A stretch of 64,000 nucleotides of DNA from Candidatus Aminicenantes bacterium (GCA_963843505.1 CAWJKR010000008.1:465922-529921), one strand, 5' to 3'. Positions 27,087-49,820 are shown, counted from the stretch's first letter. Notes: generated by a model not told the origin, from the sequence alone. Program-made: numbers and translations.

Positions 27087-29181
27087 TACTTCTGGACCGT
27101 CGTGAGGACGATCTGCTCCTCGTCGATCGTCCGGACCGTGTCGTAGAAGCGACTTGACGGCCTTGTACTGCTCGACCGGGAAACAAGCTCTTCTTGATGA
27201 TGAGGTCGCGCTGGATGTGAAGCCGGTTGGGCGCCTCCAAGCCGCAGACGATCGAAAATCGGAGAACTCGGTCTCGTTCTTGCGGGGCACCGGCCGGACC
27301 TCGGCGGATCAGCCCCTCGGGCAGGGTGATGATGATGTCGTCGAACTGGCGGAACGGGTAGGGGATATAGACGGGGTATTTGCGCTCGTCGTGACGGAAC
27401 GGATACTGTCCCGTGCCGGCCAGCGGGGAGATCGGCAGGAGCATCTTTTCGCCGGCGGCGGTCCCGATCCCCGGGATGGAGACCTCATAGGAGCGATCAG
27501 GGACGGGGTCGTTGTTGTCGATGTTCTCGACCTTGGTCAGCTTGGCCGATCGCGCCCATGGGGAGGAGGTCGCCGAGCTCCTTCTCGAGCGCTTCCCGGC
27601 GGGCCGCGTCGTCGTCGTGGATGTGGTCGAGCCGCCGGACGAGGGCCTCCTGGCCGGTATAGGTCGTCGTGACCGTCCCGGCGAGGTTGCCCTGCAGGTC
27701 GAGCGTCAGGGCGATCTCGCGCTGCGTCAGGGCCATGTCGGGCGGGAAGACCGGGAGCGAGAAGAAGGCGGGCGGGTCGTCCGAGAAACGGAGGGCGGCC
27801 GAATTGGTCCGGCTCCAGTGGACGAGGCCGAAGGGGCAGAACGGCGTCGCCGGGTCGAAGGCCAGGACCCTGTCGCCGACCTTGACCGTGGCCACCTCCG
27901 AATCGAGCTGGCCATAGAAGGAGAGGTAGTTGTTGCGGAAGATCTTGTTGTCGCGGGCGGTGACCCGGACGACTCCGGCCTTGAAGCCGGCGGCCCGGGC
28001 CAGGGCGACGAACGTCCGGGTGATGTCGCTCCGCACGCCGAAGCCCCGCTCGAGGACGTCGGAGACCTTGCGCGTTGTCCTTGATCTTCTGCTCCTTCCT
28101 CTGCCGGCGGGTCAGTCCCTTCTCGTAGCTGAGGTTGCGGAGTCCCTGGACCTTGGCGTAGATCCGTTTGAGCTGCTCGATCGGGTCGGTCGCGTCGCCG
28201 ACGATCTCCCGGGCGGCGGCGTCGAGCCGGCCGGGCTTGCCGAGGAAGGCTTCGACGCCCTTTTGCCACTCCTTGCTCTCCAGCTTCCAGAACTCTTCGT
28301 TGCTCTTCGACCTTGTCGTTGATGATAGAAGAGGTCGACCGACGTCCGCATCGTCTCCTCCGGGACGGAATACTCCTCCTCTTCGAAGGCCGGGATGTCG
28401 ACGAGCTCCAGCTCGATCCGGCCCTTTTCGAACGTGGGCCTCGCCGACATCTTGCCGATGGAGACCCAGGCCATCCGGCAGCCCGCCTGCCGAACAGGTA
28501 GCTCAGCCAAGCCCGGAGTTGGACGTCGGTCGCGAACTTGGCCTTCTTGGTGAACAGGTCGTCCTGGACATCCCAGCTCTCGAAGGGCAGGGCCCGCAGC
28601 TCGGTCCTCTCGGGATAGCCGCCTTCCTCCGGCCGTCCGCCGGAGCCGCCGAGGCCGGTGACGATGTCGTCGAGGCCCTCGGTCGATCCGCTGCCCTCGC
28701 GATCGATCTCGACCTTATAGCGGTAGTCGATGATCGAGCCGACGGCGACGTCGGGCAGGGCGAAGGTCTTGGCGGCCACCCGCATCTTGCGGTAGCGGAA
28801 GGCCGTCTTGTCGAAGATCTGGCCGCCGAACTCGCGCGCCGGGCCTTCGGGCGGCACGACCCGGGCCTGGAGGCCCGTGATCTTGGTGGAGCCGGTGACG
28901 AAGGGGATCTCGATGTTCGAGTACTCCCGGCCGGCGTCGGTGAGGATCTTCAGGCGCCTGAAGACGGACGTCGCGAAGGTCTCGCCGTCGGTGATCTCCT
29001 CCCGGTAGAGGATGATCGCCGGCGCGCCGGGCTGCTGCGGGCAGTCCTTCATGGCCAACTCCTCCGGGCTGATCGGAGGCCAGGGCTTCTGGGCGAAGGC
29101 GGGCCGCCCGCAGAGGAAAACGAGGACGGTCGCGAGAAAGAGGGCCGCGGCCGGTGCCGGTAGGGAGCGGGTCTTGGACAT
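27087..29181 (-). CDS. Secreted DUF3857 / transglutaminase-like / DUF3858-architecture protein, paralog X; many frameshifts.
   Basis: Signal MSKTRSLPAPAAALFLATVLVFLCG. N-terminus EELAMKDCPQQPGAPAIILYREEITDG...FRRLKILTDAGREYSNIEIPF (DUF3857-like). Transglutaminase-like core ...DITRTFVALARAAGFKAGVVRVTARD.... C-terminus repaired to ...FYDTVRTIDEEQIVLTTVQK*. Confidence 0.55.
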
Positions 29182-31248
29182 CAGGGCCTCCTGGTCTCGG
29201 CGGTTTTCAGGAGCAGGCTCTGCTGCTCCTCGGCGCCCACGGCGAGGAAGAACTTGAGGGCCTCTTCATGGCGCGACGCCGGCAGGAGCGGCTCGATCAG
29301 CCGGTACTCGCGCCGGTAGACGAGCGTTCGCCCGGCCGCCTCCGTCCGGCTCGAATAGGAGGCGAATCCGGCGTCGAGGGCGACCGGCTTCGGCAGGCTT
29401 TCGGCGGTCCAGCCCTCCGGCAGCTCGATCGTGAACTCGTCCCGGGAGAACGAAGTCGTTTCCAGGTCGATGGGGTAGCGCCGCGGTTTCTTGTCCTTCG
29501 AGGCGAGGTCGATGGCCTTGTTGCCGACGACCCGGGGGCGGACGACGAGATAGCCGCCGGCGCGCTTGGCGTAGGCCGGAGGCGATGAAGCGGTAGCTGA
29601 CGACGAGGTCGCCGCGGGCGTCGTCGAGGTTCTTGAACTCGTAGGCTCTGGAGCGAGAAGGACGCGAAGGAGCGGGACAGGAACGTCTCGAGATACTTGC
29701 GCCGCTCCGCCTCCGTCGCCGACTGGATCTGATAGCGCAGGGAATCGGCCTCGGCGCCGCGCCGCGTCTCGGTGATCTCGCCGGCCAGCGCGCCGTCGCC
29801 CGTCAGGACGAGTGTGCCCCGGCGGTCGAGGACGTTGCCCTCGGGGCCGGGACGGGGGAGGAGCAGGAGCTCGCCGCTCCCGCCGGCCACGAGCAGGCCC
29901 GTGTTGTCCTGGAGGTAGTAGGGCAGGCGCCCGAGCGGGCGTCGTCGGCATGGTCGGGTCGAAGACGAGAAGCCGGCCCAGGCCCGGATGGCGGACCAGG
30001 CTGTCGAGCCCGGCGTCCGGAACGTCGTCGGGCAGGCGGATGGCCAGGATGACGTGGTTGAAGCTGCCGAGCGAGACCGGCGACTGGAGGTTCACGCCGC
30101 CCCGGTCGGTGTGGATGACGATGAAATGGGAATCGATCCCGACCGCCTCGAGAAGGGCCGCGAGGAGCGTCGCCTTGTCCTTGCAGTCGCCGTAGCGGTT
30201 GGCGAGGACGCTCGGCGCCGGGTGGGGCTGGAACCCGCCGATGCCGATCTGGATGGAGACGTAGCGGATCTCCTTCTGGGCGAATTCGGCCAGGGCCCTG
30301 ATCTTCGAGAGGGTGTCGGGCGAGGCCGCGGTGAGCTCGCGGGCCTTCTTGCGATACGGTCTCGTCGGGGACGCGCCGCGGCCCGCTCAGCGCCGGCGTA
30401 CCAGGCCCCCATGTCGGCCCAGCCGGAGAAGGACGCGCACGCCCGGGTCGGCCGACTTGAGCCGGACGAGCAGGCGGCCGGCCAGGGCGCGGTCGCCGGG
30501 CCGATAGGGTTCGTCCTCGATGGCCGGGATGTCGGCGATCTCGATGGAGAGCTTCCGGGGCAGCAGCGGGGAGATCGGCTCTTGCTTCGGTTCGACCGGC
30601 GTCCAATTGACCCAGCTGAAGTCCGGCTCCCAGCGCGTCGGCAGGGACAGCGCGTAGGTCGCCCGAAGGACCGGGAGCTCTCCTTGGAAGTCGAAGCTGT
30701 CCTCGAGCGGCGGGCGGGGTCCGCTCGTGCACCCATTCGAAGCCGACCACGCTGCCGACGTCGACTTCCGGGACGACGAGCAGCATGATCTTGGCGTCCA
30801 TGTAGAGGGTGTCCGGGGCGAGCGAGGACGAGATGACCTGTCTTCATGGTCACCTGGCGCGGCGAGCCGGACGGGTTGATCACCCATCCGGTCATCGCCT
30901 TGACCTTGGTGTCGTAGGTCTCGGCCGGATCAGGCGCTGGGCGATCCTCGATCGCCGCCGGACCGGAGGACGCGGGTCGCCCGCCGGACGGTCGTGGTCA
31001 GGACGCCCTTGGGACTGATGACGGTCGACTGCTCGTTGAGCAGGACGACGGCTTCGGTCTCGGCCGGGAGCGACGGAATGGGACGGGCGGCCTCGTCGGC
31101 GAGCCAGGACGGCGGTTTGACCGCGCCGCCGGCCGGCGGACAAGGGGCGGACGATGGGGACGGACGATGGCCATGCGGCCGGGAAGGAGAGGATCAGGGC
31201 AAGAAAGAAGGTCCTGACGGACGCGGAAACCAACAGGCGCGTTCCCAT
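29181..31248 (-). CDS. Secreted DUF3857 / transglutaminase-like / DUF3858-architecture protein, paralog Y; many frameshifts.
   Basis: Signal MGTRLLVSASVRTFFLALILSFPAAW. YMDAKIMLLVVPEVDVGSVVGFEW. TGase-like Cys motif YGDCKDKATLLAALLEAVGIDSH (inferred by frame repair). C-terminus ...IELPEGWTAESLPKPVALDAGFASY...VYRREYRLIEPLL.... Its stop overlaps the start of paralog X by 1 nt. Confidence 0.55.
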
Positions 31249-31392
31249 ATTCCCCTTGACACGCCCTCCTGTGCCCGAGAATATTCTCTGTTTGGACTGA
31301 ATGTCAAGGCGATTGTATGACTTATTGCGCCTTCTCGAGACGTGCTATAGTGGTCGGGGGAGGAAAACCATGAAGCTTCGAGCGCTGACCTC

Positions 31393-32341
31393 ATGAAAGC
31401 CATCGTCTACACAAAATACGGGCCGCCCGATGTCCTTCGGCTCAAAGAGGTGGACAAACCCGTTCCCAAAGACAACGAATTATTGATCAGGGTCCGTGCG
31501 GCCGCCCTGAACGCCTATGACTGGCGCCATTTGAGGGCCGACCCGTTCTTCATCAGGCTCATGGGCGTTGGCCTTTTCAAGCCAAAGCACCGGATCCTGG
31601 GGGCCGATATCGCCGGCCTGGTCGAAGCGGTCGGCCGCGCCGTCACGCAGTTCCGGCCCGGAGACGAAGTCCTCGGCGACGGCGGCTACGGGGGATTCGC
31701 CGAGTTTGTCTGCGTCGACGAAAAGCGCTTTGTGCCGAAACCCGCCTCCCTCACGTTCGAGGAAGCCGCGGCCGTGCCGATGGCCGGACTCACGGCTTTG
31801 CAGGGCCTTCGCGATAAGGGACAGATCCGGGCGGGGCAGAAGGTCCTGATCAACGGGGCCTCGGGCGGCGTGGGGACTTTCGCCGTGCAGATCGCCAAAT
31901 CCTTCGGGACCGAAGTCACCGGGGTTTGCCGCACGTCGAAGATGGACCTGGTGCGCTCGATCGGCGCGGATCATGTCGTCGATTACACTCATGACGATGT
32001 CACCCGGAGGGCGGAGCGATATGATCTGATCTTCGATGTCGCGGCCTTTCGTTCGGTCTTGAAGTACAAGCGCATCTTGAGCCCCGGCGGAATCTATGTT
32101 CTGGCCGGCGGCTCTATCGCCCGGATGTTCGCAGCTGATGGTCATGTCCATGTTCGTCAAGAACATGGGAGTCATGGGCGCCAAGATCAACCAGGAGGAT
32201 CTGCGCTTCCTCATGGAGCTCATGAACGCCGGCAAAGTCCGGTCGATCATCGACCGACGCTACCCGTTAGGCGAAACGGCCGCGGCCCTTCGGTATCTTG
32301 AAGACGGGCGCGCCCGCGGGAAAGTCGTCATCACCGTATAA
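31393..32341 (+). CDS. MDR-superfamily Zn-dependent dehydrogenase / NAD(P)H quinone oxidoreductase; one frameshift near 32120.
   Basis: MKAIVYTKYGPPDVLRLKEV...VRAAALNAYDW...GDEVLG...GGFAEF...GQKVLINGASGGVGTFAVQIAK... Lower GC than the contig average. Confidence 0.75.
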
Positions 32342-32459
32342 GAATCCATAAGACCCTCCGCTTTTTCGGTCAGGCACTGGGCCGGAAATTGACAAATTCT
32401 TGACAACTCTCCGCCGGACCATGGGTATCTTTCCCATAGAAGGAGATCAGGGTGATCTC

Positions 32460-33065
32460 ATGAGTCAGAACGGGCCAGGCCTGTGGAGAAACGGCGCAGC
32501 GGGATTCGCGATCCCGATCGTCATGAGCCTTCTCCTGTCGCAAGCCTGCGCCACGCTGGCCCGAAGCGTCGAGCAACCCATCCCGGTGACTTCCTCTCCC
32601 GCAAGGGCCACGGTGATCCTCAACGGGATATCGCAGGGCGCGACCCCGCTCATGATCAGGCTGCCCCGGTACAAGAAGGACCAGGTCATCCGGATAGAAT
32701 CCCCCGGATATAACCCTGCCGAGATACGGCTAAGGCGGAAGATCTGGGGAGGAACGATCCTCGGAAACATCCTTATGGGATTGGCGCCGGGATTGGTTCC
32801 GGTCCTGCTCTTATCGGGATCATCTCATGCCAGAATCGATCCCTCCGACGAGAAGGCCGTTCTCTCGATCTATCTCAAGAGCGCCGCGGTCCTCGGCGGG
32901 CTCTTTGTGTTGATAGACATCGGCAGCAGCAACGGCTACACTTTGACGCCGGAGAACCTCACCGTGAGGCTGACGAAGGCCGATGGGCCGCCGCGGGTCG
33001 ATACGGTTGTCCTCGACGCCGACGACCTTCGGAACGTCAAGTGGATCCGCGTCCGAAGGGACTAA
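32460..33065 (+). CDS. PEGA-domain lipoprotein, paralog 1.
   Basis: Lipobox LLLSQAC. SSPARATVILNGISQGATPLMIRLPRYKKDQVIRIESPGYNPAEIRL (PEGA-type module). C-terminus ...ADDLRNVKWIRVRRD*. About 55% identical in layout to the next ORF. Confidence 0.5.
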   Translation: MSQNGPGLWRNGAAGFAIPIVMSLLLSQACATLARSVEQPIPVTSSPARATVILNGISQGATPLMIRLPRYKKDQVIRIESPGYNPAEIRLRRKIWGGTILGNILMGLAPGLVPVLLLSGSSHARIDPSDEKAVLSIYLKSAAVLGGLFVLIDIGSSNGYTLTPENLTVRLTKADGPPRVDTVVLDADDLRNVKWIRVRRD

Positions 33066-33107
33066 GCGCGTTGACATGTGCCCACAGGGCTCCATAAGAG
33101 ACCGGCC

Positions 33108-33674
33108 ATGAACGATAAAAGCACAAATTGTTTTCTTTTCATCCTGACCCTAGCGAGCATACTGCTTTCTCCCGGCTGCGCGACTTTGACGCGGAGCAGG
33201 CACCAGATCGTCTTCGTGACTTCTTCTCCCCTGGGAGCCGCGGTTACCATCAACGGCGTCGAGAAAGGCCTGACCCCGCTCATGATGAAGCTGGACAGGA
33301 CGTTGAGGCGCCCGGTCATTCGGATAGAATCCCTGGGCTACAACCCTGTTGAGATCCGGCCAATAAGAAGGCCGTCGGGAACGCACTTTTTTGCGAACCT
33401 CCTCGTCGGGCTGATACCGGCCTGTGTGCCAGCCGCCGCCTATTCGTTGGCCCATGATGGCGAGGGAGCTATGATGGTCTGGATCCTCAGCGCAGCGGCC
33501 TTCGGCGGACTCTTCACTGCCGTCGACAGCGGCGCCGGAGCGATCTACGATTTCAGGCCGACCGATATCACCGTAATTCTGAAGAAAGCCAGCGGGCCTC
33601 CCCGAGTCGATACGATTCTCATTGATGCTGACGACTTCCAGAACGTCAAGTGGCTTCGGGTCCATAGGGACTGA
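33108..33674 (+). CDS. PEGA-domain lipoprotein, paralog 2.
   Basis: Lipobox ILLSPGC. SSPLGAAVTINGVEKGLTPLMMKLDRTLRRPVIRIESLGYNPVEIRP. C-terminus ...ADDFQNVKWLRVHRD*. Tandem duplicate of 32460-33065. Confidence 0.5.
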   Translation: MNDKSTNCFLFILTLASILLSPGCATLTRSRHQIVFVTSSPLGAAVTINGVEKGLTPLMMKLDRTLRRPVIRIESLGYNPVEIRPIRRPSGTHFFANLLVGLIPACVPAAAYSLAHDGEGAMMVWILSAAAFGGLFTAVDSGAGAIYDFRPTDITVILKKASGPPRVDTILIDADDFQNVKWLRVHRD

Positions 33675-33769
33675 ACCCTGGCCCTGCGGTAGGCCGCGAA
33701 CTCGGGCCGAATCTTCTGAAAGCCCATGCTCCTTGTCAGAACGGTGTTGAGAAATCAGGCATAAGGGAG

Positions 33770-33864
33770 TGGCGGGAAGGTGTGGGAGTCGAACCCACCC
33801 GGGACGTCTATAGCCCCATACCGGATTTGAAGTCCGGAAGGATCACCGGATCCTTCACCCTCCC
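33770..33864 (-). tRNA. selC: tRNA-Sec (selenocysteine tRNA, anticodon UCA), 95 nt including encoded CCA.
   Basis: Minus-strand read: GGGAGGGT-GAAGGATCCGGTGATCCTTC-CGGACTTCAAATCCGG-TATGGGGCTATAGACGTCCC-GGGTGGGTTCGACTCCCAC-ACCTTCCC-G-CCA. It has an 8-bp acceptor stem with one G-U pair, an extended D-stem, anticodon loop CTTCAAA (UCA), a long variable arm, and the T-arm GGTTCGACTCC. Segment for segment it parallels E. coli selC (CCGGTGA / GGACTTCAAATCC / GGTCCCGGG..GGTTCGACTCC). Confidence 0.8.
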
Positions 33865-34096
33865 CGTGGGTCAAAAGATGGTAGTCCGTCCGGGCACGGG
33901 TGTCAATTCAGCCGTGGCTCTTCTCGATCGCTGCCCAGGGGCGGGGCCCGGAAAGATCACCCCTACTTGCGCTCGGAATTTACAGCTGGTCCAAGATCTT
34001 CTTTCCACCTTCATTCTTAGGATTCAGCTCGCGCGAGACAGGCTGCGTGTTTCCATCGTGGCCCGGATGGGTTAAAATGATCGTCCGGGAGTAAGG

Positions 34097-35845
34097 ATGT
34101 CCGCTCGCTCAAGACCCGATATCAAAGCCGTCTGGCGCGACAATATCGTTTTGCGCCGGCTGCAGAAGCTCCCCGACAATGTCCGGCAGGTGACCCAGAC
34201 CATCGTCCTCAGCCTGGCGGCCGGCCTGTCTGCGGTCTTGTTCCTGTTCATGACCAATCTGTTGTTTTCCTTGACGTACGTTCAATTCGCCGAGCGATCG
34301 AAATTGTCCTTCGCTGTGGCCAGTTTCATCCTGATCATCGGCACATCGGTCATCGTCGGATTCCTGCTGAACAGGCTCAGCCCCGACGCGGCCGGGAGCG
34401 GCATCCCCCAGGTCAAGTCGGCTTATTGGAAAGAGCTCGGCTTCCTGCCGTTCCGGTCGACCCTGGTCAAGTTCTTCGCCGGCATGCTCAGCATCGGCGG
34501 GGGCGCCAGCCTCGGCCGCGAGGGGCCCTCGGTCTTCATCGGCAGCGGGGTCGCCTCCAACGTCGCGGGCGTCCTCGGCACACCGCGGCGGGAAAGGCGG
34601 GCCGCCACATTGATGGGGGCGTCGGCCGGACTGGCCGCGGCCTTCAACACGCCCATGGCCGCCATCACCTTCGCCATTGAGGAGATCGTCAACGACCTGA
34701 ACAGCCGCTACCTGGGGCGCGTCGTTCTCGCTTCGGTCCTGGGCGCCTTCGTCGTCTACGCCGTCCTCGGCCGCCAGCCGGCTTTCTCCCTTCCGTCCAT
34801 TGAGAACGTCAGCTGGCTTCATTATGCCGTCGTCCCCGTTGTGGCCGCCGTTGCTTCGTTCGCCGGGGTCGCTTTCCAAAGAGGGACCCTGTTCCTGAGG
34901 GGGAGGGTGAGAAAGATCGGCTCCGTCCCGGCCTGGCTCCGCCCCGGCCTGGGCGGTCTCGTCACCTGGATCTTGGGCGTCAGCGTGTTCCTGACGGTCG
35001 GAAAGATCGGGGTCTTCGGGCTGGGCTACCAGGACCTGAGCCGGGCCTTGAACAATAATTTCGAATGGAAGATCGCCGGCATCATGGTCTGCGCCAAGCT
35101 GCTGGCCACGATCGCGAGCTACGGTTTCGGCGGCTGCGGAGGTATTTTCGCGCCCATGCTCTTTGTCGGGGGGATGAGCGGCTTTTTCATAGGCGGCCTG
35201 GCGGGAACTTGGATGCCCTTGACGCCTGCCGACCATATCGTCCTGTCCGCTGTCGGAATGAGCGCCTGCCTCGGGACGGTCGTCGGGGCGCCCTTGACCT
35301 CGCTTTTGATCGTCTTTGAAATGACCCATCAGTTCGCCCTGGTGCCGGCGCTTATGATCGGGATGATCATCAGCCGGGCGATCTCGCGTTTCGCCGGCCG
35401 GCTCAATTTTTATGACGCGGCCCTTGTCCAGGACGGCCACGAGCTCCATAAGATCCGCCCGCCCCTCGATCTTCAGAGCTGGCAGAACCTTCCCGTGGCC
35501 GCCATCGCGAATCCCCACCCTGTGGTCATCCGGGACCTCGCCCCGGGAGCTCTGCACGCTGCCATCGACAGGTACCCCTACAATAGCTTTCCCGTAGAGA
35601 TCGACGGCCGGCTCAGAGGGATCCTGACCCGCCAGCAGATCCTCGAATCCCTGGTAGCGAAGGACGTGCCGGAGATCCGCAACGTGGTCACATGCTTTCC
35701 AGAACAGACAGTCCGGGAGGTCGGGGACAAGTTCATCCAGTCTCCGATCAATGTCCTCGTGGTCGTCAGCCCGGAGACCGGCGCGATCCAGGGCATCATC
35801 ACTTTACACGACCTCATTCGGGCCCAGGCCTCCGTCAACACCTAG
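34097..35845 (+). CDS. ClC-family voltage-gated chloride channel / H+:Cl- antiporter with C-terminal CBS pair.
   Basis: Intact 582 aa. GSGIPQVK, GREGPSVFIGSG, GIFAPMLFVGG selectivity-filter motifs. C-terminal tandem CBS-like segments. Confidence 0.85.
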   Translation: MSARSRPDIKAVWRDNIVLRRLQKLPDNVRQVTQTIVLSLAAGLSAVLFLFMTNLLFSLTYVQFAERSKLSFAVASFILIIGTSVIVGFLLNRLSPDAAGSGIPQVKSAYWKELGFLPFRSTLVKFFAGMLSIGGGASLGREGPSVFIGSGVASNVAGVLGTPRRERRAATLMGASAGLAAAFNTPMAAITFAIEEIVNDLNSRYLGRVVLASVLGAFVVYAVLGRQPAFSLPSIENVSWLHYAVVPVVAAVASFAGVAFQRGTLFLRGRVRKIGSVPAWLRPGLGGLVTWILGVSVFLTVGKIGVFGLGYQDLSRALNNNFEWKIAGIMVCAKLLATIASYGFGGCGGIFAPMLFVGGMSGFFIGGLAGTWMPLTPADHIVLSAVGMSACLGTVVGAPLTSLLIVFEMTHQFALVPALMIGMIISRAISRFAGRLNFYDAALVQDGHELHKIRPPLDLQSWQNLPVAAIANPHPVVIRDLAPGALHAAIDRYPYNSFPVEIDGRLRGILTRQQILESLVAKDVPEIRNVVTCFPEQTVREVGDKFIQSPINVLVVVSPETGAIQGIITLHDLIRAQASVNT

Positions 35846-36065
35846 ACGGACCTTCTGGCTCGCCCGCAAGGCGAAATCGTCGGGGGGGCTCGGGGGACAG
35901 ACAGGGATGTTGCTTTAAGAAACGACGGGCAGGGTGATCGGCGTCAAGAAAGTGTGGCGGCGGCGAGAGTGGGGAGTGGGATTGTACGACCGGGCCGGAT
36001 TTGCTAACGTTAGATAGCGGCTCGCACCCCACAATGAGGGAACCAATGCATGACCGGTCTTCCCG

Positions 36066-37172
36066 GTGGATTCTTCAGAACGGCGGGCGCTGGCTGCTTT
36101 TATTTCTTCCTTGGCGGTTATCGGGACCGCCCAACAGGTCATCGATAATCCGGCGAAACCCGCGAGCCTCAACGCGGGCCGTGTGCTCGCGCTCAAGGAG
36201 GTCGTCCGGATCACGGACGATAAGGGTCAGTTCCTCTTCGTCCAGCCCTTCAACGTCTTGACGGGGCACGACGGATCGGTCTATGTCCAGGAATACAGGC
36301 AGCTGCTCAAGTTCGACGCCCAGGGCCGGTTCGTCAAGAACATGCTCAAGAGAGGGCAGGGGCCGGGCGAGCTCGACGACAACCTGACCGACGTCGTCGT
36401 CCGGGAAAAGGACATCATCCTCTGGTCGTCCAACAACCATAAGTTCATCCGGCTCGACCTCGACGGCCGCCTCATCGAGGATAAGAAGATCGTTCAGGGA
36501 TTCCTCGGCTCCCTCCTCGGCGTGTTCGGGGGCCGGTGTTTTTTCCTCAGGAGCGAGATCGACACCGATAAGTCGAGGCCCAGGATCAACGGGATCTTCG
36601 AAACCCCTAGCCGTCTCGTCATCCTCCCTGAAAACGGGGAGGCCGTTCCCACGCCTTTCCTGATGCCGATGACGGCGGGCTTCCATTTCGGACCGAGGGC
36701 CGCTTCGAGCAGCACGATATCCCGGGCCATGCCGGTGGCGGCGGGCGAACGCTCGGTCTTCCTCTTCCATTCGCCGGACTATCTCATCAAGCTCATCGAC
36801 CTCGAGACCGGGGTGGTCGTGCGAAGCTTCCGACGGGATTACGATCGGGTGAAGTACGAAGTCAAGACGCCGGCCGGCTATCCGGCCGAGCTCATCCCCA
36901 AATATCACAACGACCTCTGCCGGCTCCTCTGGCGCAACGATAGGCTGTGGGCCGTGACGTCGACCGTCGACCCGAAGAAGGGGATCCTGGTCGACGTATT
37001 CAGCCGGGAGGGTCAGTATGTCGACAACTTCTACCTGCCCCTCTTCAAGATCCGCAAGAACAACCCGCAGTATTACGCCCCGATGGCGGTTTGGGGGAAC
37101 TTTCTTTATCTTCTCGAGGCGGACGAAGACGACATCATCTCCCTCATCAAGTACGAGATCGTCGGAGAATGA
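36066..37172 (+). CDS. Secreted hypothetical protein, probably a beta-propeller fold.
   Basis: Intact ORF with GTG start and N-terminal hydrophobic RRALAAFISSLAVIGTAQQ. Repetitive beta-strand-rich blades; no confident family call. Lower-GC block. Confidence 0.4.
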   Translation: MDSSERRALAAFISSLAVIGTAQQVIDNPAKPASLNAGRVLALKEVVRITDDKGQFLFVQPFNVLTGHDGSVYVQEYRQLLKFDAQGRFVKNMLKRGQGPGELDDNLTDVVVREKDIILWSSNNHKFIRLDLDGRLIEDKKIVQGFLGSLLGVFGGRCFFLRSEIDTDKSRPRINGIFETPSRLVILPENGEAVPTPFLMPMTAGFHFGPRAASSSTISRAMPVAAGERSVFLFHSPDYLIKLIDLETGVVVRSFRRDYDRVKYEVKTPAGYPAELIPKYHNDLCRLLWRNDRLWAVTSTVDPKKGILVDVFSREGQYVDNFYLPLFKIRKNNPQYYAPMAVWGNFLYLLEADEDDIISLIKYEIVGE

Positions 37173-37200
37173 TCGGTCCGGGATACGGAGTCGGTGACGC

Positions 37201-38421
37201 TTATCGCCCGGCTCGAGGCGCAAAGCCCAGGACCTGGAACGGCGCCTCGTCCGGCCGCCCCGGCGAGATGTGAAGCTCCGGCTTCTCGCCCAGGACCATG
37301 ATGGTGCAGCCGTAGGTTTCCGCGTTATTGATCCCGGAGGCGCGGTCCCGGAAGAGCCCCTGGAGCGCGTCGAGGTCCAGGACGGCGGAGTTGTCCTTGA
37401 GCCGCCGGCCAAGGAACTTGAAACGCGGGCAGCGGGCCTGATAGCTCTCGAGCGTCAGGTTATTGCGCTTCAGCAATTGCGGGAATTTCGGATTGTAATC
37501 GTCGTTGACCATCGGATGGTTCGTGTGGTAGCTGAACTCGGCGCCCTCGAACGGGACGAACTTGGACATCTTGCCGGCCGAGCGCTCGAAGACGGCGACC
37601 TCAGCCGGCCCTCCGATGACATAGGTCTGCGGCGCCGCGGGCTGGATGTCCTCGAGGAATTTCACCGCCCGCTCATAAGAGCTCTGGCGCAGGAGGCCCC
37701 TGATGACGAAGGCCACGGGGAGCCCCTTGGTCGAATAGGCGAGCTGGGTCACGGCGTTGACGCACACCCCGACCGAACGGCTGTTCAACCCGTTGGCGGC
37801 GACGACCCCCGGGATCGTGAAGACGAGGGTCTCGAGATCATCCCGGCTGTCCCGGATGCGAAGGACGGTCTGAAAGCCGTGATAGAAGTCGGGGATGTCC
37901 AGGGTTTGGGAGACAGAGGCGGGGTGCCCATTCCTCTTTCCGGCCGCGATCGAGGTGCATTTGGAGAAGCTCAGGTCCGGCCCGACGGTCCAGAGCTCGT
38001 CGATGAGCTGATAAGCGTACATCGTGTCGAAATCGACCCCGGCCCCGTCGGCGATGCCGCGGACTTCGTCGAGGAGGCCCGGCGTCCAACGGTCGATGGC
38101 CGGCTTGAAGTCCGTCTTCTTCAGGAATTCACGGATAAAGACCTCGGCTTCGACTCGATAGGTCCTTTCCAGGTCTTCCTTCCAGCGCTTGACCAGCTCC
38201 AGGATCTCCGCCTTGAGCGTCTGGCCGTGGATCTTGCCCATCTGGTAGGGCGTTCCCGCGAGATCGACGATCCTCAGCTTCGTCTCCGGTCCGGGGCGCG
38301 ACCTGTCCCCGGCCCGAAGGGAATTCAACTGGGCGGTGAAGAGGAGGAGCAGAAAGACGAGCCCGTTGGCCGAAATCCGGCGGACGGCTCTTATCGGCGA
38401 TTTTCTTTCCGATATTGGCAT
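37201..38421 (-). CDS. C45-family peptidase / acyl-CoA:6-aminopenicillanic-acid acyltransferase-like (Ntn-hydrolase), secreted.
   Basis: Signal MPISERKSPIRAVRRISANGLVFLLLLFTAQLNSLRA. ...GPDLSFSKCTSIAAGKRNG... (autoproteolytic Cys nucleophile context of AAT/C45). ...NAETYGCTIMVL.... Confidence 0.55.
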   Translation of the reverse strand: MPISERKSPIRAVRRISANGLVFLLLLFTAQLNSLRAGDRSRPGPETKLRIVDLAGTPYQMGKIHGQTLKAEILELVKRWKEDLERTYRVEAEVFIREFLKKTDFKPAIDRWTPGLLDEVRGIADGAGVDFDTMYAYQLIDELWTVGPDLSFSKCTSIAAGKRNGHPASVSQTLDIPDFYHGFQTVLRIRDSRDDLETLVFTIPGVVAANGLNSRSVGVCVNAVTQLAYSTKGLPVAFVIRGLLRQSSYERAVKFLEDIQPAAPQTYVIGGPAEVAVFERSAGKMSKFVPFEGAEFSYHTNHPMVNDDYNPKFPQLLKRNNLTLESYQARCPRFKFLGRRLKDNSAVLDLDALQGLFRDRASGINNAETYGCTIMVLGEKPELHISPGRPDEAPFQVLGFAPRAGR

Positions 38422-38550
38422 GGGGAGACTATACTTCCGGCCGCCGGCGACCGTCAAGGATTGACCATCCTCCTCGGCCTGGGGCCGAGGCAACTATTCG
38501 CCGGGCTGGATCGTCTCTAGGAATGATATCCAACCTGGAGGTCTGCCGCG

Positions 38551-39362
38551 ATGAATAAGCTCTTCGTGGCCGCCATCCTTTTATTCGTCACCGCCCTGGC
38601 GCTGGCCGCCCCGCCGCAGCGCGCCGAGATCTTGGTCCTCGGCACCTACCATATGGCTAACTCCGGGCCGCGATGTCTTCAACATGGAGGCGGACGACGT
38701 GCTCGCGCCCAAGCGGCAGGCCGAGATCGCCGAGCTGCTCGAGGTCCTGAAGAGATTCAAGCCGACCAAGATCGCCATCGAGTCCACGGTTTATGAAGAC
38801 CGTCGCCCCAAGCAGTACGCCGATTACCTGGCCGGCAAGTACACGCTGACGGCCAACGAGATCGAGCAGGTCGGTTTCCGGCTGGCCAAGGAGCTCGGCA
38901 TGGAGGCCATCTATCCCGTCGATATCGACGGCGATTTCCCCATGGCAGCGGGTGATCAACTTCGCCAAGGCCAAAGGGCAGTCGCAGATCATGGACCGGC
39001 TCATGTCCGAGATCGGCAAGATGGTCAAAGAACAGGACGCCTACCTCAAGTCCCACACCATTCTCGAGACGCTCCTCTTCATGAACGACGACAAGAAGGT
39101 CGCCCAGGACGTCGGATTCTACTACCGCGAGGCCCACTTCGGAGAGCCGGGCGACTATGCCGGCCCGGACCTTCTGGCCAGCTGGTATCAGCGGAATATC
39201 CGCATCTTCAACAATATCGCCGCTATCATCGGATCCCCGAACGAACGCGTGCTGGTGATCTACGGGGCCGGGCATCTCGGCTGGCTGCGGCAGGACGTCG
39301 AGAACGATCCTAGCATGAGACTCCGGAAGCTGGCCGAGTTCGCGAGCCCGAAAACGAACTGA
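38551..39362 (+). CDS. Secreted hypothetical protein (DUF5694 / TraB-GumN-like layout); 2 frameshifts.
   Basis: Signal MNKLFVAAILLFVTALALAAPPQRA. EILVLGTYHMAN...DDVLAPKRQAEIAELLEVLKRFKPTKIAIE...VLVIYGAGHLGWLRQ.... The family assignment is tentative. Confidence 0.4.
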
Positions 39363-39743: not shown

Positions 39744-40404
<661 letters not shown>

Positions 40405-40421
<17 letters not shown>

Positions 40422-42906
40422 GCTGAAACGGAAGGTTTGGCGCTTCCGGCGGGCCTACGTCCTCGCGGCCGTCCCCGTCCTGGCCCTCGCGATCTCGCTC
40501 GCCGTCCTCCCGGGCCGGAGCGACGTCGACGCGGTCCCCGAGGCGTCCGACGCGAAGGTCGCCCAAGGGACCTTCCGGCCGACCGTCGTCCTTACGGGGA
40601 GCTTGACGGCCCTCCGGTCGGAGGAGCTCAAGGTCCCGATCACCGAGACGTACCGGGTCCAGATCAAATGGATGGTGAAAGAAGGCGAGACCGTCAAGCC
40701 GGGCGACCCCGTGGTCCGGTTCGACACCTCCGGATTGGCCACGTCGATCGAGGGCGCCCAGGATTCGCTGAAAGCCAAGTGGGAGGAGAGGTCCCGGAAG
40801 AAGGCCGAGTACGAGAACCAGACCTTCGAGCTGGACGTGGAAGTGAAGAAGGCCGAGAACGACAACCGGCAAAAGGCCCTCGACGCGTCCATCCCCGAGG
40901 GGCTCGAGTCCCGGTACGAGTACGACCGCAAGCAGCTCGAAAAGAAGATCAGCGATCACGCCCTGGCCAGCGCCCGGACGAACAAGAGCGTCAAGATGGC
41001 CGACCTGGAAAGCCAGATCAAGACGCTCGCCATCGAGGCCGCGGAGCTCGAAACCAAGCTGCGGAGGCTGAATGACAGCCTCGACGACCTGACCCTCATC
41101 GCCAGGACCGAAGGCGCGGTGATCTACGATGTCGACGAATGGAGCGGCCAAAAGGTCCAGGTGGGCGACACGGTCTTCGCCACCTCTGTCGTGGCCACGA
41201 TCCCCGACATGACGTCGCTCCTGGTCCAGGCCTGGATCAGCGAGACCCACATCCAGCGCATCAAGACCGGGCAGAGCGTCGACCTCTATCTCGACGCCTA
41301 CCCGGAGAACCGGTATGCCGGCGCGATCCGGGAGATCTCCCAGAGCGCCGATCCCGTCCGGCGCTGGGGCCGGTCCAACTATTTCCGGGTCGACATCGAA
41401 ATGGAAAAGCTCGAGCCGGACATCATGAAGCCCGGGATGAGCGTCCGATGCGAGGTCCGCGGGCCGGAATACAAGGACGTCCTCCTCATCCCGCTGGGGA
41501 TGACGCTGTTCGACGGGCGCTCTTTCTGGGTCAGGCCCGCCGGCGGCGAAGCCGTCGAGCTCACGGCCCTGGATTACGACGAGTTCGCGGTGGCCGCCGA
41601 CCCGGGGGCCAATCCCTCCCTCAAGGCGGGAATGACGCTCCTCCCGGTCGGCGCGCTTCCCGAAGAAGAGTCGGAGAGAAGAAGGCCGGTGAAAAAACCT
41701 AGGCTCTTTTCGCGCGCCGCCGCCGCGGCCCTGGTGTTCGCCCTCGCGCTCACCGGGTGTTCGCGGTCGGGCAAGGGCGCGGTGGCAAAAGTCGTCAAGG
41801 CCCCCATGAACATCACGGTCCACGCCACGGGCCAGCTCCAATCGGCGGCCTCCCACAGTGTCGGGTGCCCGTCGGTCGAGCGGGTGTGGCAGTACACGAT
41901 CTCCTTCATGGCCCCGGAGGGCAAGGCCGTCAAAGAAGGCGACATGATCCTCTCTTTCGACGCCCGGGAGATCATGCAGCGGCTCCAGGTCAAGCAATCG
42001 GACCTGGATACGGCCCTCAAAGAGCTCGAGAGGATGCAGCTCACCGAACGGCAGACCCGGGAGAACCTGGCCCTGCAATTCGAACAGGAGAAGGTCAACA
42101 AGCAGAAGGCCGTGCGCAAAGCCGACTACCCCGAGGGGATCATCGCGCCGATGGAGCTCCAGAAGAGGCAGATGGAGCTCGAGCTGGCCGATCTGCAGGA
42201 GAGGCTCGCGGAAAACCGCCTGGCCAACCAGAACTCGGGGATGGCCAGCCGCATCCAGGTCCAGGAATCGAAGGCCCGGCTGCTCCAGGCCCAGGTGGAC
42301 CGGCTGCAGCGCGACATCCAGACCATGAACGTCCTGGCGCCCACGGCCGGGCTCGTCGTTTACACGCCCAATTGGAACGGCAAGAAAAAGGCCGTCGGCG
42401 ACACCGTGTGGATGGGCGACACGATCCTCGAGCTGCCCGACCTCGGGCGGATGCAGATGAAGGCCGTGATCCTCGAGGTCCAGGCGGGCCGGGTCAAAGT
42501 CGGGCAGCCGGCCGAGGTCCGGCTCGACTCCAACCCGGACCGCGTGTACAAGGGCGAGATCACGTCCCTGGGCCGCGTCTTCCGCGTCAAGTCGGACAGC
42601 CAGCCGGCGATCGTCTTCGACGCCGTCATCGATCTCTCCGAATCGGATCCCGAGCTGATGCGGCCCGGCATGGCGGCCGGCGTCAATATCGTCATCTCCT
42701 CCAAAAGCGACGTGCTGCAGGTGCCGGAGGCCGCGATCGTCTACCGCGAGAAGGGCGCGGCCGTTTGGAAAAAGGGCGCTTTATCCCGGGATCTGACGCC
42801 GGTCACCCTCGGGGCCCGGTCCGACGGCATGGTGGAGATCACGAGCGGCCTGGCGAAGGGGGATTCGATCGTCATCCTCTCGGGGGCCGCGGGAGCCGGA
42901 CGATGA
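40405..42906 (+). CDS. HlyD-family membrane-fusion (periplasmic adaptor) protein, read as one 833-aa ORF that contains two complete MFP units (second unit begins about 41689 with a lipobox).
   Basis: Unit 1: N-terminal TM anchor AYVLAAVPVLALAISLAV, coiled-coil, beta-barrel ...VIYDVDEWSGQKVQVGDTVF.... Unit 2: RBS GAGAGAAGAAGG plus GTG 41689, VKKPRLFSRAAAAALVFALALTGCSRSG (lipoprotein signal), coiled-coil LQVKQSDLDTALKELERMQL..., ...VVYTPNWNGKKKAVGDTVWMGD.... No stop codon separates the two units in this assembly. Confidence 0.6.
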
Positions 42907-44126
42907 GAGCGAAGGCCCTGGCGGCCGCGCTTCTCATGATCGCCCTCCTCGCCGCCGGCTGCGGCGGGCCGGGCGGCGGGGCCTCGGCCGGCATGAATGT
43001 CCGTCGAGGGACTTTCGAGATCGTCATCCCGGCCTTCGGCGAGCTGCAGGCGGCCAAGTCCACGCCGATCGTCGTCTCGCCCGAGAGCCGCTTCGCCCTG
43101 CAGTCCATCGCCTGGATGGCCCCCGATTATACGGCGGTCAAGAGCGGCGACGTCGTCATCCGGCTGGCCAGCACGCAGCTGCCGGACATGCTGCGCTCCG
43201 AAGAAGCCGAGATGGCCAAGCTCAACCTCGAGATCGCCCAAAAGGAGAAGCAGCTCGAGAAGGAAAAGAACGACCTGACGGGCCAGATATCGGTGACGGG
43301 CATCCAGAGAGAGCTGGCCGACGTCTACGCCGCCCGGGACGAGACCATCTATTCCCGCAATAAGATCATCGAAGACGCCATCGATCTCAACTATCAGACC
43401 ATCCGCGAGCGCTACTTCCAGCAGGAGAGGACGCAGCTCGAGAAACGCATCGCCGCGGAGCTCCAGCTCCTCCAATCGAAGGCCCGCGCCCACGAGGTGA
43501 AGATCAAGCAGTTCCAGGACCAGCTGAACAACCTCGAGATCCGGGCCCCGCACGACGGCATGCTGATCATCGGCAAGATGTGGAACGGCGAGAAGTACCG
43601 CGTCGGGATGAACGCCTACAGCGGGATGAAGCTGGGCTCCCTGCCCGACCTCAGCGTCATGGAAGCCAAGGTCTTCGTCCTGGAGTCGGAGGCCGCGGGC
43701 CTCAAGGAGGGCCTGCCGGTCACGGTCGGCCTCGATTACGAGCCGGGGCGGACCTTCACCGGCAAGGTGGCCGGGATCGACACGATCGCCAAGCCTTTGA
43801 GCGAAGACAGCCCGCTGAAATATTTCGAAGCGCGCGTCGCGCTCGACGTCACCGATCCCCAGCTGATGAAGCCGGGCGTCCAGGTCCGGGCCTCCATTTT
43901 CGTGGAGAAGCTGGACGACGTCGTCGCCGTCCCGAACCAGGCCTTCGCGTTCGAGGGGGACGCGGCCTTCGTCTTCGTCAGGAAAGGCGGGCGGGTCCTG
44001 AAGAGGCCGGTCGAGATGGGCGCCCGGAGCCTGACCCAGACGGTCGTCACCAAGGGATTGGAAGAGGGCGCGCAGATCCTCCTGGGCCAGCCGGGGACCG
44101 CGGCCAAGGCGGGGAAGCCGTCATGA
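42903..44126 (+). CDS. HlyD-family membrane-fusion lipoprotein (third MFP).
   Basis: ATG overlaps the upstream stop (ATGA). Lipobox LLAAGCGG. Coiled-coil ...EEAEMAKLNLEIAQKEKQLEKEKNDL..., ...LIIGKMWNGEKYRVGMNAYSGMKLG.... Confidence 0.7.
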   Translation: MRAKALAAALLMIALLAAGCGGPGGGASAGMNVRRGTFEIVIPAFGELQAAKSTPIVVSPESRFALQSIAWMAPDYTAVKSGDVVIRLASTQLPDMLRSEEAEMAKLNLEIAQKEKQLEKEKNDLTGQISVTGIQRELADVYAARDETIYSRNKIIEDAIDLNYQTIRERYFQQERTQLEKRIAAELQLLQSKARAHEVKIKQFQDQLNNLEIRAPHDGMLIIGKMWNGEKYRVGMNAYSGMKLGSLPDLSVMEAKVFVLESEAAGLKEGLPVTVGLDYEPGRTFTGKVAGIDTIAKPLSEDSPLKYFEARVALDVTDPQLMKPGVQVRASIFVEKLDDVVAVPNQAFAFEGDAAFVFVRKGGRVLKRPVEMGARSLTQTVVTKGLEEGAQILLGQPGTAAKAGKPS

Positions 44127-45358
44127 AGATGACCTTCGAGTTCGCCGAATCGATGGAGTCCCTCCTCCATCACAAGCTCCGGACGCTGCTCACGCTGTTG
44201 GGAATGATCTTCGGGGTCGGGGCCGTGATCGCCATGCTGAGCATCGGGCGCGGCGCGGAACGGGAAGCCCTGCAGCTCATCGACACGATGGGCCTGCGCA
44301 ACATCATCGTCAAGGCCAAGACCTTCGAGGAGAGCAAGCTCAAGGAGATCCGCGAGAGCTGCCCGGGACTGACGATGCAGGACCTGAACGCGGCCCGGGA
44401 GACGCTGCCCTTTCTCAGCACCTACAGCGCCAGCAAGCAGGTCAAGGTCTTCGCCGTCGTCAGCCGGGACCGGGAGAGCGACGCCGAGGTCTCGGGGGTG
44501 ACGCCGACGCACCTCGACATGGCCAATCTGAGCGTCAGCGCGGGCCGGTTCCTGCTGCCTTTCGACGACCTCGTCTACGCCCACGTGTGCGTGATCGGGT
44601 CGCGCGTCGCCCAGGTCCTGTTCCCGGGGGAGTCGCCCCTCGGCCGGCAGGTCAAGATCAACCACGTCTGGATGACGGTCGTCGGCGTGCTGCTGGACAA
44701 GAACCTCCTCAAGGAGGAATTCCAGGGCATCGCCCTCAAGGGCGAGCAGAACAACATCTATGTCCCGCTCCAAACGGCCCTGAAGGTCTTCCGGTTCGGG
44801 AACTACGAATCCGACCTCGACGAATTCCGGGTCCAGCTGAGGCCCGAGATCTCGAGCGCCTCGGCCGCGGGGACCCTGGCCCACCTGATGAAGCGCCGCC
44901 ACAAGGAGATCGACGATTACGAGATGATCGTGCCCGAGGCCCTTCTCGAGCAGCACCGCAAGACCCAGAACATCTTCACCATCGTCATGGCCTGCATCGC
45001 CGGGATCTCGCTCCTCGTGGGCGGCATCGGGATCATGAACATCATGCTGGCCACGGTGCTCGAGCGGACGCGGGAGATCGGGCTGAGGCGGGCCGTGGGC
45101 GCGAGGCAGATCGACATCCGGAGCCAGTTCATCGCCGAGACGGTCACCATCTCGGCCATCGGCGGGACGGCCGGGATCCTCTTCGGCTTCGCGCTGTCCA
45201 TGCTCATCTCGGCGTTCACCGGCTGGCCGGTCGGCTGGACGATCACCGCCGTGCTGCTGTCGTTCTTCGTCTGCACGGTCATCGGCCTGGCCTCCGGGAT
45301 CTACCCGGCGCTCAAGGCCTCACGGCTGGACCCGATCGAGGCCCTGCGTCACGATTGA
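44123..45358 (+). CDS. ABC transporter permease, MacB/FtsX family (MacB periplasmic domain plus 4 TM).
   Basis: ATG overlaps the upstream stop. N-terminal TM LRTLLTLLGMIFGVGAVIAMLSIG. Large periplasmic domain. C-terminal FtsX helices ...TIVMACIAGISLLVGGIGIMNIMLATVLERTREIGLRRAVGA.... Confidence 0.8.
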   Translation: MKMTFEFAESMESLLHHKLRTLLTLLGMIFGVGAVIAMLSIGRGAEREALQLIDTMGLRNIIVKAKTFEESKLKEIRESCPGLTMQDLNAARETLPFLSTYSASKQVKVFAVVSRDRESDAEVSGVTPTHLDMANLSVSAGRFLLPFDDLVYAHVCVIGSRVAQVLFPGESPLGRQVKINHVWMTVVGVLLDKNLLKEEFQGIALKGEQNNIYVPLQTALKVFRFGNYESDLDEFRVQLRPEISSASAAGTLAHLMKRRHKEIDDYEMIVPEALLEQHRKTQNIFTIVMACIAGISLLVGGIGIMNIMLATVLERTREIGLRRAVGARQIDIRSQFIAETVTISAIGGTAGILFGFALSMLISAFTGWPVGWTITAVLLSFFVCTVIGLASGIYPALKASRLDPIEALRHD

Positions 45359-46698: not shown

Positions 46699-46938
46699 GG
46701 CAAGACCTCCTTTTTCTTTCCCGAATAAAAGCCCCGGACAATCCAAGTTCAAGTTAGTCCCACTTCGGTGGATTGTCAAGAATCCGAACATTAAAATTTC
46801 ATTAAAATCGGGGACACAATACCATTTTCCGAATTGGCCGGCCTTACGGGGCAGGGGGACAGGAACCTTTAGGCCGTCCATTGCGTCCTAATTAGAGGCC
46901 GAAGTCGAAATCTGCCTCCCGCACGGAAAGGACGGAAA

Positions 46939-48656: not shown

Positions 48657-48671
48657 ACCTGGCCCCGCCGG

Positions 48672-49082
48672 CTATGAGGCCCGTCCGTCGAGGACGCAGC
48701 GGATGGCCGCGGCGATCTCGCGGAGGGTGTAGGGCTTCGCCACGAGCTGGCGGATCCCCAGACGGGCGGCCTTTGCCTCGCCGGACTCGTCGATGCATCC
48801 CGAGCATAAGAGGACGGGGAGGTCCTTCCGGATCCTCATCGCTTCCTCCGCGAGGGCCGTCCCGGTCATGTGCGGCATGTTCTGATCGGTGACGACGATA
48901 TCGAAGGCCTGGGGATCGTCGCGAATGAGCTCGAGGGCCTTGGGCCGTCGGTCGCGAAGGTCGAGACGTAGCCCAGCCGCTCCAACACGGCGGAGAGGCT
49001 CTCGGCCTGAACACGGTCATCGTCGACGACCAGGACCCGTTCGTTTCCCCGGGGGACGCGGACTCGGTTATCTTTCGACCAT
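48672..49082 (-). CDS. Single-domain response regulator receiver (CheY-like); one frameshift near the N-terminus.
   Basis: Repaired: MVER-NRVRVPRGNERVLVVDDDRVQAESLSAVLERLGYVSTFATDG-KALELIRDDPQAFDIVVTDQNMPHMTGTALAEE...KPYTLREIAAAIRCVL.... Confidence 0.65.
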
Positions 49083-49102
49083 GCTGTCTTGCCCAGCGGA
49101 TA

Positions 49103-49622: not shown

Positions 49623-49820
49623 GGCCGCTCCTCCAGGAGGCGATTAGCTGGACCTCATCCGCCCCTAAGTTACGCAAGAATCTTGCCAAATGCCGGTTTT
49701 TCCGAGAATTCTCTTCCCCTGCCTGAAAACAGGCGGAGGGACGGCGCACGGACCGCCCGGAGCGTGGGCAAAATCCCACGGCGCAGGACGGCTTCCTATC
49801 GGAGGGGAATAGGAGAAGGG

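Follow-up and report, generated by a model that had tools for sequence, protein, structure and literature searches.

How did the gene for tRNA-Sec (selC) in this Candidatus Aminicenantes genome come to lie apart from selA, selD and selB, and was the DNA around it acquired or rearranged? The window analysed here, that is, the whole stretch of 64,000 nucleotides, had been described in an earlier note as holding selC about 16 kb from selABD, inside a block of low GC content at 31.2–39.7 kb, and this atypical composition was taken to suggest acquisition or rearrangement. The distance proved accurate: the gap from the stop codon of selB to the 5′ end of selC is 15,956 nt; the two genes share a strand, and selC is the downstream one. 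The proposal that the region was acquired or rearranged, parting selC from the sel operon, is also supported, but by synteny with related loci and not by composition. The features of the window are collected in Table 1, together with tRNA-Sec fragments found in related loci, which carry numbers beginning with L.

The first point to be settled is the identity of selC. ARAGORN calls a selenocysteine tRNA where the earlier note had placed one, with the anticodon tca at position 35, and assigns it to the minus strand; this tRNA-Sec(UCA) is the only tRNA in the window. The Rfam model RF01852 matches the gene over its full length (1–91) with 80.8 bits (gathering score 47, E = 4.5e-15). In the centroid fold, an acceptor stem of 8 bp and a T stem of 5 bp make up the 13-bp acceptor/T helix of the bacterial 8/5 type; the D stem has 6–7 bp with a 4-nt loop, and the 5-bp variable arm qualifies as long. 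The UCA anticodon, the 8-bp acceptor stem and the long variable arm, by which the gene had originally been recognised, are thus borne out by ARAGORN, Rfam and the centroid fold. The anticodon loop is 7 nt long (CUUCAAA), the discriminator is G and the CCA end is encoded. The D, anticodon and T loops agree with the Rfam tRNA-Sec consensus, and the D stem co-varies across relatives. A comparison with E. coli selC in a 28-Gb database returned no match at E ≤ 1e-3, which is uninformative on the likeness of the two genes. The promoter of the window selC, here called type A, also precedes selC or selC halves in L137, L128, L122, L107, L097 and L133. The gene is untouched by the frameshifts of the assembly, and selA, selB and selD occur with it in the window (49.8–54.4 kb), as is usual for a bacterial tRNA-Sec. 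Judged by these features, selC is a genuine tRNA-Sec gene of an Aminicenantes (Acidobacteriota) genome. It is most probably functional and separately transcribed, and its partner would be the selA-selD-selB operon, 16 kb distant but on the strand of selC.

To place this arrangement among relatives, the C-terminus of SelB was used to scan metagenomes, which gave 80 loci. The relatives of the ClC, SelB, ABC and PEGA proteins are Candidatus Aminicenantes metagenome-assembled genomes or sediment metagenome contigs. The comparison of synteny that the earlier note had proposed supplies the support: selC follows selB directly in five loci, and the two genes share a strand in all five. In L112, L114 and L121, whose SelB is 72–73% identical, the tRNA-Sec gene lies ~543–545 nt past selB, behind a YacP/NYN gene (Pfam), and it follows selB after ~75 nt in L137 (SelB 56% identical) and after ~12 nt in L138 (48%). 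The order in L114 is Usp-SSF-...-DsbD_N-selA-selD-selB-YacP-selC-[4.6 kb]-TG2-TG1, where TG stands for the transglutaminase-like genes. The window retains both outer anchors of this order, namely the sel operon together with the genes upstream of it, and the pair of transglutaminase-like genes, but has 16 kb between selB and selC, and qor and two PEGA genes between selC and TG2. A relative at 93% identity (L081 and L171, which belong to one JGI contig) has a selB–selC gap of 43.4 kb, with strand and order as in the window, and L081 has the interposed genes from AHSA1 to ABC in common with it. Since selC adjoins selB in relatives and the gap of the 93% relative has yet another size, the split is read as derived: the ancestral layout was probably selA-selD-selB-(YacP)-selC, and the size of the split differs among relatives. 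The separation to which the earlier note drew attention therefore stands as a derived trait of this lineage; a selC located away from selAB is, however, common among bacteria.

Table 1. Features of the window and copies of the displaced tRNA-Sec 5′ half in related loci
Feature	Position	Strand	Support and remarks
Two DUF3857/transglutaminase-like genes (TG), many frameshifts	27100..31250	minus	Conserved anchor 3′ of selC; homologues follow selC in L114
Zinc-type alcohol dehydrogenase/quinone-oxidoreductase-like gene (qor), frameshifted at 32128	31393..32341	plus	Pfam ADH_N, ADH_zinc_N
PEGA-domain protein 1, tandem paralogue	32400..33065	plus	Pfam PEGA
PEGA-domain protein 2, probable lipoprotein	33078..33674	plus	Pfam PEGA
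selC, tRNA-Sec(UCA), 95 nt, CCA encoded	33770..33864	minus	ARAGORN, Rfam, 8/5 cloverleaf
Strain-variable segment abutting the selC 5′ end (selC promoter, ClC promoter, ClC gene)	33865..35938		Comparison with L161
Sigma-70-type selC promoter, TTGACA-17-TACCAT	33878..33906	minus	13 nt upstream of the tRNA 5′ end
ClC chloride channel, C-terminal CBS domain, strain-specific cargo	34097..35845	plus	Pfam Voltage_CLC (8e-84), CBS
DUF5128 beta-propeller protein	36066..37172	plus	Pfam; also in L161
C45-family acyltransferase (AAT)	37201..38493	minus	Pfam AAT
DUF5694 gene, frameshifted at ~38942	38684..39362	plus	Pfam on both pieces
Efflux operon: ABC ATPase, three HlyD-type adaptors, MacB/FtsX permease	39744..45358	plus	Pfam
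DUF4382 protein	45454..46881	minus	Pfam; recurrent downstream neighbour of selB
S41 peptidase/TPR gene (+), response-regulator fragment (-), AHSA1-like gene (-)	47334..49628		Pfam; common to L081
selB, frameshifted	49821..51759	minus	SelB wing and beta-barrel domains, GTP_EFTU; intact in L081, L114, L107
selD, frameshifted	51779..52996	minus	AIRS fragments; approximate limits mapped from L081
selA, frameshifted	52965..54405	minus	SelA, Se-cys_synth_N; 479 aa and intact in L081; approximate limits mapped from L081
5′ half + tract	L095 15959-16154		
5′ half + tract	L128 20116-20312		
5′ half + tract, two copies	L107 7532-7726, 9908-10102		
5′ half + tract, two copies	L129 6477-6671, 10423-10617		
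5′ half + tract	L122 19809-20003		
5′ half + tract	L106 6866-7060		
5′ half + tract	L123 2767-2961		
5′ half + tract	L108 3834-4028		
5′ half + tract	L097 4926-5121		

Two observations concern the outer parts of the sel locus. A DsbD_N-like gene and two genes without a Pfam match always lie directly upstream of selA (window 54429–56702, L081, L095, L099, L114, L128, L133 and L134), and the same trio follows the ClC gene in L003 (7537–10047) with no sel operon between them; the trio may be linked to selenium handling. In L114, an alpha/beta-hydrolase-like gene, identified by eye, lies 3′ of selC at 14627–15592, with 41% GC in a genome of 62–65% GC. This gene is clearly foreign, and the 3′ flank of selC also gathers accessory DNA.

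The genes that the earlier note had recognised around selC (two PEGA genes, a ClC channel and a C45 acyltransferase) all find support in Pfam, which adds the CBS domain, DUF5128 and DUF5694. Their distribution among relatives is uneven. The DUF3857/transglutaminase genes have intact homologues in L114, L168 and L171. The frameshift of qor is an extra T, and the gene is intact in L161 with 315 aa, as is the DUF5694 gene with 269 aa. The two PEGA genes share a direct repeat (D1) of 73% identity over 128 nt; L171 has one copy only, and orthologues of PEGA protein 2 adjoin selC in L161, L168 and L171. Orthologues of the C45 acyltransferase (74–76%) occur downstream of selB in L115, L122, L125 and L127, and in L122 the gene stands directly before the selC half. 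The DUF4382 gene comes after selB-YacP in L107, L129 and L101, and the ABC-HlyD-MacB efflux operon was found in other contexts in L004, L005 and L163–L166. Within this operon, the window has one HlyD open reading frame of 833 aa at 40405–42906 where L163–L166 have two adaptor genes (441 and 415 aa), which is either a fusion or a sequencing error.

The ClC gene is missing from the position next to selC in L161, L168 and L171. Its closest relatives are Aminicenantes genes, 83% identical, whose surroundings are unrelated to those in the window: in L004 and L005 the gene follows the ABC-HlyD-MacB operon, and in L003 it precedes a DsbD_N gene. A conserved adjacency of ClC and selC was considered and rejected, as none of the eight closest ClC loci, out of 80 ClC loci in all, has a tRNA at that place. 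About 11 of the 80 have tRNA-Val(CAC) in the slot; it lies on the opposite strand, ~140–310 nt upstream of ClC, in L013, L014, L015, L021, L022, L032, L033, L034, L043 and L052. The contigs with tRNA-Val form a more distant group, with labels that vary between Aminicenantes, Chrysiogenales/Chrysiogenia, Acidobacteriota and Patescibacteria. In one Smithella locus (L054, 9264–9361), a tRNA-Sec precedes the ClC orthologue by 640 nt. The tRNA genes beside ClC may be a coincidence or may reflect a tendency of this ClC to sit near tRNAs. In L003, an nhaA-I riboswitch (Rfam RF03057, 47.8 bits) was found at 182–244, ~5.4 kb upstream of the ClC orthologue.

The argument from composition fared less well. 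The GC content of the window is 66.3%, and the block at 31.2–39.7 kb has 60.7% against 67.2% for the remainder. The dip is real, since the block is the lowest-GC stretch of 8.5 kb in the window (Mann-Whitney on 1-kb bins, p ~9e-6) and its lowest 1-kb windows have a GC of 0.585; its depth, however, is 6.5 points and not the 10–15 points that had been claimed. The segment 33061–33120, which had been singled out as having about 50% GC, has 51.7%, and 2.4% of the 60-nt windows taken over the whole stretch have 50% GC or less. Shorter dips of like depth occur at 46–47 kb and at 61.5–62.5 kb. The tetranucleotide signature, another check that had been proposed, deviates mildly (z ~-1.7), and two other segments (14–18 kb and 19–23 kb) deviate more. 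The qor and PEGA genes are just as GC-poor in the relative L168, and the ClC orthologues are not GC-poor relative to their own flanks. The sel operon itself (49800–54500) is the GC-richest part of the window, with 72–74%, and exceeds the mean by as much as the flagged block falls short of it. By itself, the compositional evidence for acquisition is weak.

Nor does the block hold as a single unit. It is a composite of three parts that are shared differently among relatives: 31.2–33.7 kb, which lies 3′ of selC and holds qor and both PEGA genes, is common to L161, L168 and L171; 33.9–35.9 kb (ClC) is specific to the window strain; and 35.9–39.7 kb is common to L161 only. The DNA that parts selC from selB, at 33.9–49.8 kb, is mostly of ordinary GC content.

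The comparison of close strains is more informative on how these parts were joined. L161, whose ABC protein is 99% identical to that of the window, has DNA that is 97% identical to the window at 31089–33864 and again at 35939–40553. The 3.4 kb between these stretches in L161 hold two other genes, one for a lipoprotein of 331 aa and one of the DUF7948/SBBP type; at this place the window has the selC promoter and ClC. The two strains differ by a replacement rather than by a simple insertion, and the homology resumes cleanly at 35939, past ClC. L168, whose PEGA protein is 90% identical, is homologous to the window from 24.8 kb to selC and no further. Its selC is identical to that of the window in the 3′ half (56/56 positions) and differs in the 5′ half (34/39), and the 5′ half of the window selC is identical (39/39) to displaced halves in L095, L096 and L128. 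As judged from these alignments, homology with the 97% strain is lost inside the tRNA, near the anticodon arm, and selC is a mosaic gene. L161 and L168 have a different upstream region, type B, in which the last codons of YacP remain although the YacP gene is absent there. From the two types of upstream DNA and the YacP remnant, it follows that the 5′ half of selC probably travels with the DNA upstream of it. A 5′ fragment of the window type, that is, of the old type, is also present in L161, inverted relative to the selC of that strain.

A second pair of close strains shows the same boundary at the tRNA gene as the window and L161 do. L121 and L123 are 99.7% identical over 2714 nt up to position 42 of the tRNA. 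Past position 42, the tRNA runs on intact in L121, and in L123 a conserved tract follows, and then foreign DNA of 45% GC. A fall of GC beyond the joint is seen in most loci that bear such halves, for example from 0.65 to 0.45 in L123, and it is clearer in these relatives than in the window.

Displaced 5′ halves of tRNA-Sec (positions 1–39/42) were found in 11 distinct copies at nine distinct loci downstream of selB, twice in tandem, 2.4 kb apart in L107 and 3.9 kb apart in L129. Each half is followed by ~35 variable nucleotides and then by a strongly conserved tract of ~120 nt (~155 nt with the linker), the sequence of which is TTCTCCCCTGTTGGACCGTA...GATCTTGATGGTTTGATCACGTTTAGGCTAGACTGAGC...TTGTGCAAGAGTTTGCACAATCTCTGCACAATTTT. 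Partial copies of the distal part of the tract are present in L129, L124, L102, L134 and L122. The reverse case, a displaced 3′ fragment (positions 32–95, 89% identical) together with an intact selC, is found in L171 (10866–10929 and 11580–11674) and L172 (1138–1201 and 1852–1946), where an insert of 650 nt between fragment and gene encodes a membrane protein of 173 aa. The cargo near the halves includes a chromate transporter, an AbiEii fragment, an Na/H exchanger, a beta-lactamase-family protein, a GMC oxidoreductase, a radical SAM protein and enolase, a housekeeping gene, which lies after the half in L095. In L133 (15256–16028), an IS256-like transposase gene, as read from the translation, lies in reverse orientation with its 3′ end breaking into the anticodon loop of selC.

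Several other readings of the halves and the tract were tried and rejected. An intron or a split tRNA does not fit, as a 3′ half is absent up to 5 kb away and Rfam yields no intron match at E ≤ 0.1. As a tRNA without a T arm, the sequence reaches only 29.7 bits in Infernal (E = 0.055), and its invariant acceptor-like stem has no covariation support; Alifold of the tract gives this never-varying stem and one hairpin with two compensatory changes. A leader or riboswitch is at odds with downstream genes on either strand, and a phage origin with the absence of both the tract and the pattern of halves from IMG/VR contigs. The tract has no match in Rfam, occurs in no viral contig of IMG/VR and is absent from the window. 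A cargo protein of L123, which was used to extend the island, gave a single match, on a 2-kb contig. The conserved promoter hexamers of the halves and the covariation in their D stem can be a legacy of the functional genes from which the halves derive, and are no proof of present function. Given its conservation, the tract is possibly the end of an element family of its own kind, and as such possibly a novel item. A bolder reading, which we consider rather improbable, is that it marks undescribed small cassettes without an integrase, or else an expressed RNA. As cassettes, these would be mobilised in trans, each equipped with its own promoter and the 5′ half of tRNA-Sec, and they would pile up in the selB–selC interval as in an integron-type array; as an RNA, half plus tract would be an expressed tRNA-Sec-like molecule that lacks the T arm and has a role in selenium decoding. 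If either version were true, the 16-kb gap of the window would be the decayed product of such an array.

The search for island machinery was negative throughout its range. Among all called genes at 27–55 kb of the window, Pfam finds no integrase or recombinase. In ~25 related loci, none was seen in the cargo beside selC or the halves among the families listed, and a motif scan combined with Pfam on 72 cargo ORFs found no integrase among the 25 families listed, each of which is matched by at least two ORFs. The window contains no partial copy of the tRNA 5′ half or 3′ end and no att scar, and a search for direct and inverted repeats at 24–44 kb returned only the repeat between the PEGA paralogues. 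A displaced tRNA fragment in direct orientation is absent from the window but present in L095, L107, L123, L129, L171 and others. As the window has neither an integrase nor an att scar, it is a fossil mosaic in which the block is fixed, rather than an active island.

The quality of the assembly has a bearing on all of this. A frame map based on codon bias revealed ~40 abutting same-strand frame switches in the 64 kb, most of them within genes and some at true gene boundaries; only two fall in the lower-GC block. The genes affected include glnA (15197–16784), an FGGY kinase (17978–19412), selA, selD, selB and both DUF3857/transglutaminase genes. Because genes that are broken in the window are intact in relatives, the switches are probably single-base indel errors of sequencing or assembly and not pseudogenes, and in annotation the broken genes of the window are best treated accordingly, as probable sequencing errors.

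Taken together, the selB–selC interval and the flanks of selC are best explained, with a probability of roughly 70%, as a hotspot of insertion and exchange with its joint in the anticodon arm of the tRNA, similar to islands that integrate site-specifically into tRNA genes. A regenerated tRNA with a displaced fragment is an accepted signature of site-specific integration, and by this analogy we infer that a site-specific recombinase made the joints, and the order of events is likewise deduced. What the data show directly is the identity of the tRNA, the sel genes, the differences in synteny, the joint within the tRNA and the fragments of the relatives. Against a site-specific island stand the lack of a recombinase and of a tRNA fragment in the window, the replacement seen against L161 and the inverted fragment of that strain, as well as the enolase in the cargo of L095, the modest deviation in composition and the error-prone assembly. 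Homologous recombination with the conserved tRNA as the homology anchor is a real alternative, if a clearly less probable one. Incoming DNA would then stem from related strains, the variable gene sets flanked by conserved anchors would be swapped as alleles, and the fragments would be due to illegitimate events. This account sits well with the lack of an integrase in any locus among the families listed, with the two homologous flanks of the window/L161 replacement, with a cargo of ordinary metabolic and transport genes that includes enolase, and with the several different contexts of both the efflux operon and ClC. What it accommodates poorly is the regularity of the joints. The break falls at constant positions of the tRNA (39–42) in independent contexts, with upstream DNA of type A and of type B; the 5′ halves are always fused to the one conserved tract; and the tandem arrays of halves in L107 and L129 and the direct 3′ fragment in L171 are hallmarks of site-specific integration (PMC4383910).

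Two further explanations are both very improbable. In one, nothing was acquired: the low GC would reflect gene content (secreted, membrane and weakly expressed proteins) and normal variance, and selC would simply be unlinked, as in E. coli. The mild tetranucleotide signature and the dips of similar depth elsewhere agree with this, as do the qor and PEGA genes of L168, whose low GC makes the signal old and stable. This account is nevertheless already contradicted, through the synteny of L114 and the polymorphism of L161: selC adjoins selB in five related loci and both outer anchors are kept, strains of 97% identity differ in having or lacking ClC, and the ClC orthologues are no poorer in GC than their own flanks. 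In the other, the join of selC and ClC is a chimera of two strains in an error-prone metagenome assembly, probably of long reads. The many frame switches inside genes that are intact in relatives (glnA, selA, selD, selB) and the existence of L161 as a co-occurring strain variant lend some colour to it, but we give it very little credence, as the joint lies at the same place in the anticodon arm in several independent contigs from other samples, the 5′ half of selC goes with the type A promoter that belongs to it, which is also the case in L137 and L128, and the flank of ClC rejoins the homology with L161 cleanly at 35939.

Under the favoured reading of a hotspot at the tRNA, the anticodon arm of the tRNA gene would be the site of recombination, and the incoming DNA would supply its own promoter and 5′ half, or the 3′ half in some relatives. 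An intact selC would be regenerated every time, and the old fragment displaced. ClC, the selC promoter and the 5′ half of selC would then be the most recent piece in the window, with qor and the two PEGA genes as older accessory DNA of lower GC on the 3′ side of selC. The remainder of the 16 kb would be a mosaic of ordinary chromosomal genes that lie elsewhere in other relatives. Such a history would explain why sel loci are split so unequally in close relatives, by 0.01–0.5 kb, 16 kb or 43 kb, and the tRNA-Sec halves with their fused conserved tract could serve as a practical marker of accessory DNA in Aminicenantes metagenome-assembled genomes.

Islands at selC are well known from enterobacteria, where LEE, PAI-I536, SHI-2 and SPI-3 place strain-specific DNA beside the gene, with a content that varies in close strains. 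These islands are inserted at the 3′ end of selC, encode an integrase of the P4 type and carry direct repeats of the 3′ end of the tRNA. The locus described here resembles them in that the tRNA-Sec gene is the landmark for strain-specific foreign DNA. It differs in the position of its joint, which is the anticodon arm, in the exchange mostly of the 5′ half, in that no integrase was seen among the families listed, and in its host, an Aminicenantes bacterium. The picture of selC as an island hotspot would thereby be extended from enterobacteria to an uncultured phylum, and in a rarer form: the anticodon arm holds the joint, and what is exchanged is the promoter together with the 5′ half of the tRNA.

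Another parallel is offered by the Islander survey, in which 159 of 3919 tRNA-gene islands had a displaced 5′ fragment and 2083 had an att site centred on the anticodon (PMC4383910). In islands with a 5′ fragment, as in the relatives studied here, the intact tRNA is regenerated, and upstream of it a 5′ fragment that ends in the anticodon loop has been displaced; tandem arrays and inserted DNA of lower GC are further points of likeness. By contrast, Islander requires an integrase for each island, whereas none was found here among the families listed, and the displaced fragment is missing in the window and inverted in L161. The compact sel loci of L114, L112, L121, L137 and L138 have the arrangement selA-selD-selB-(YacP)-selC on a single strand, and the window agrees with them in strand and gene order. 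It differs from them in the 16 kb of unrelated genes (43 kb in L081/L171) that are interposed, and in that its selC has its own promoter. The locus thus belongs to a familiar class, accessory DNA associated with tRNA genes, for which selC is the hotspot here, in a little-studied phylum.
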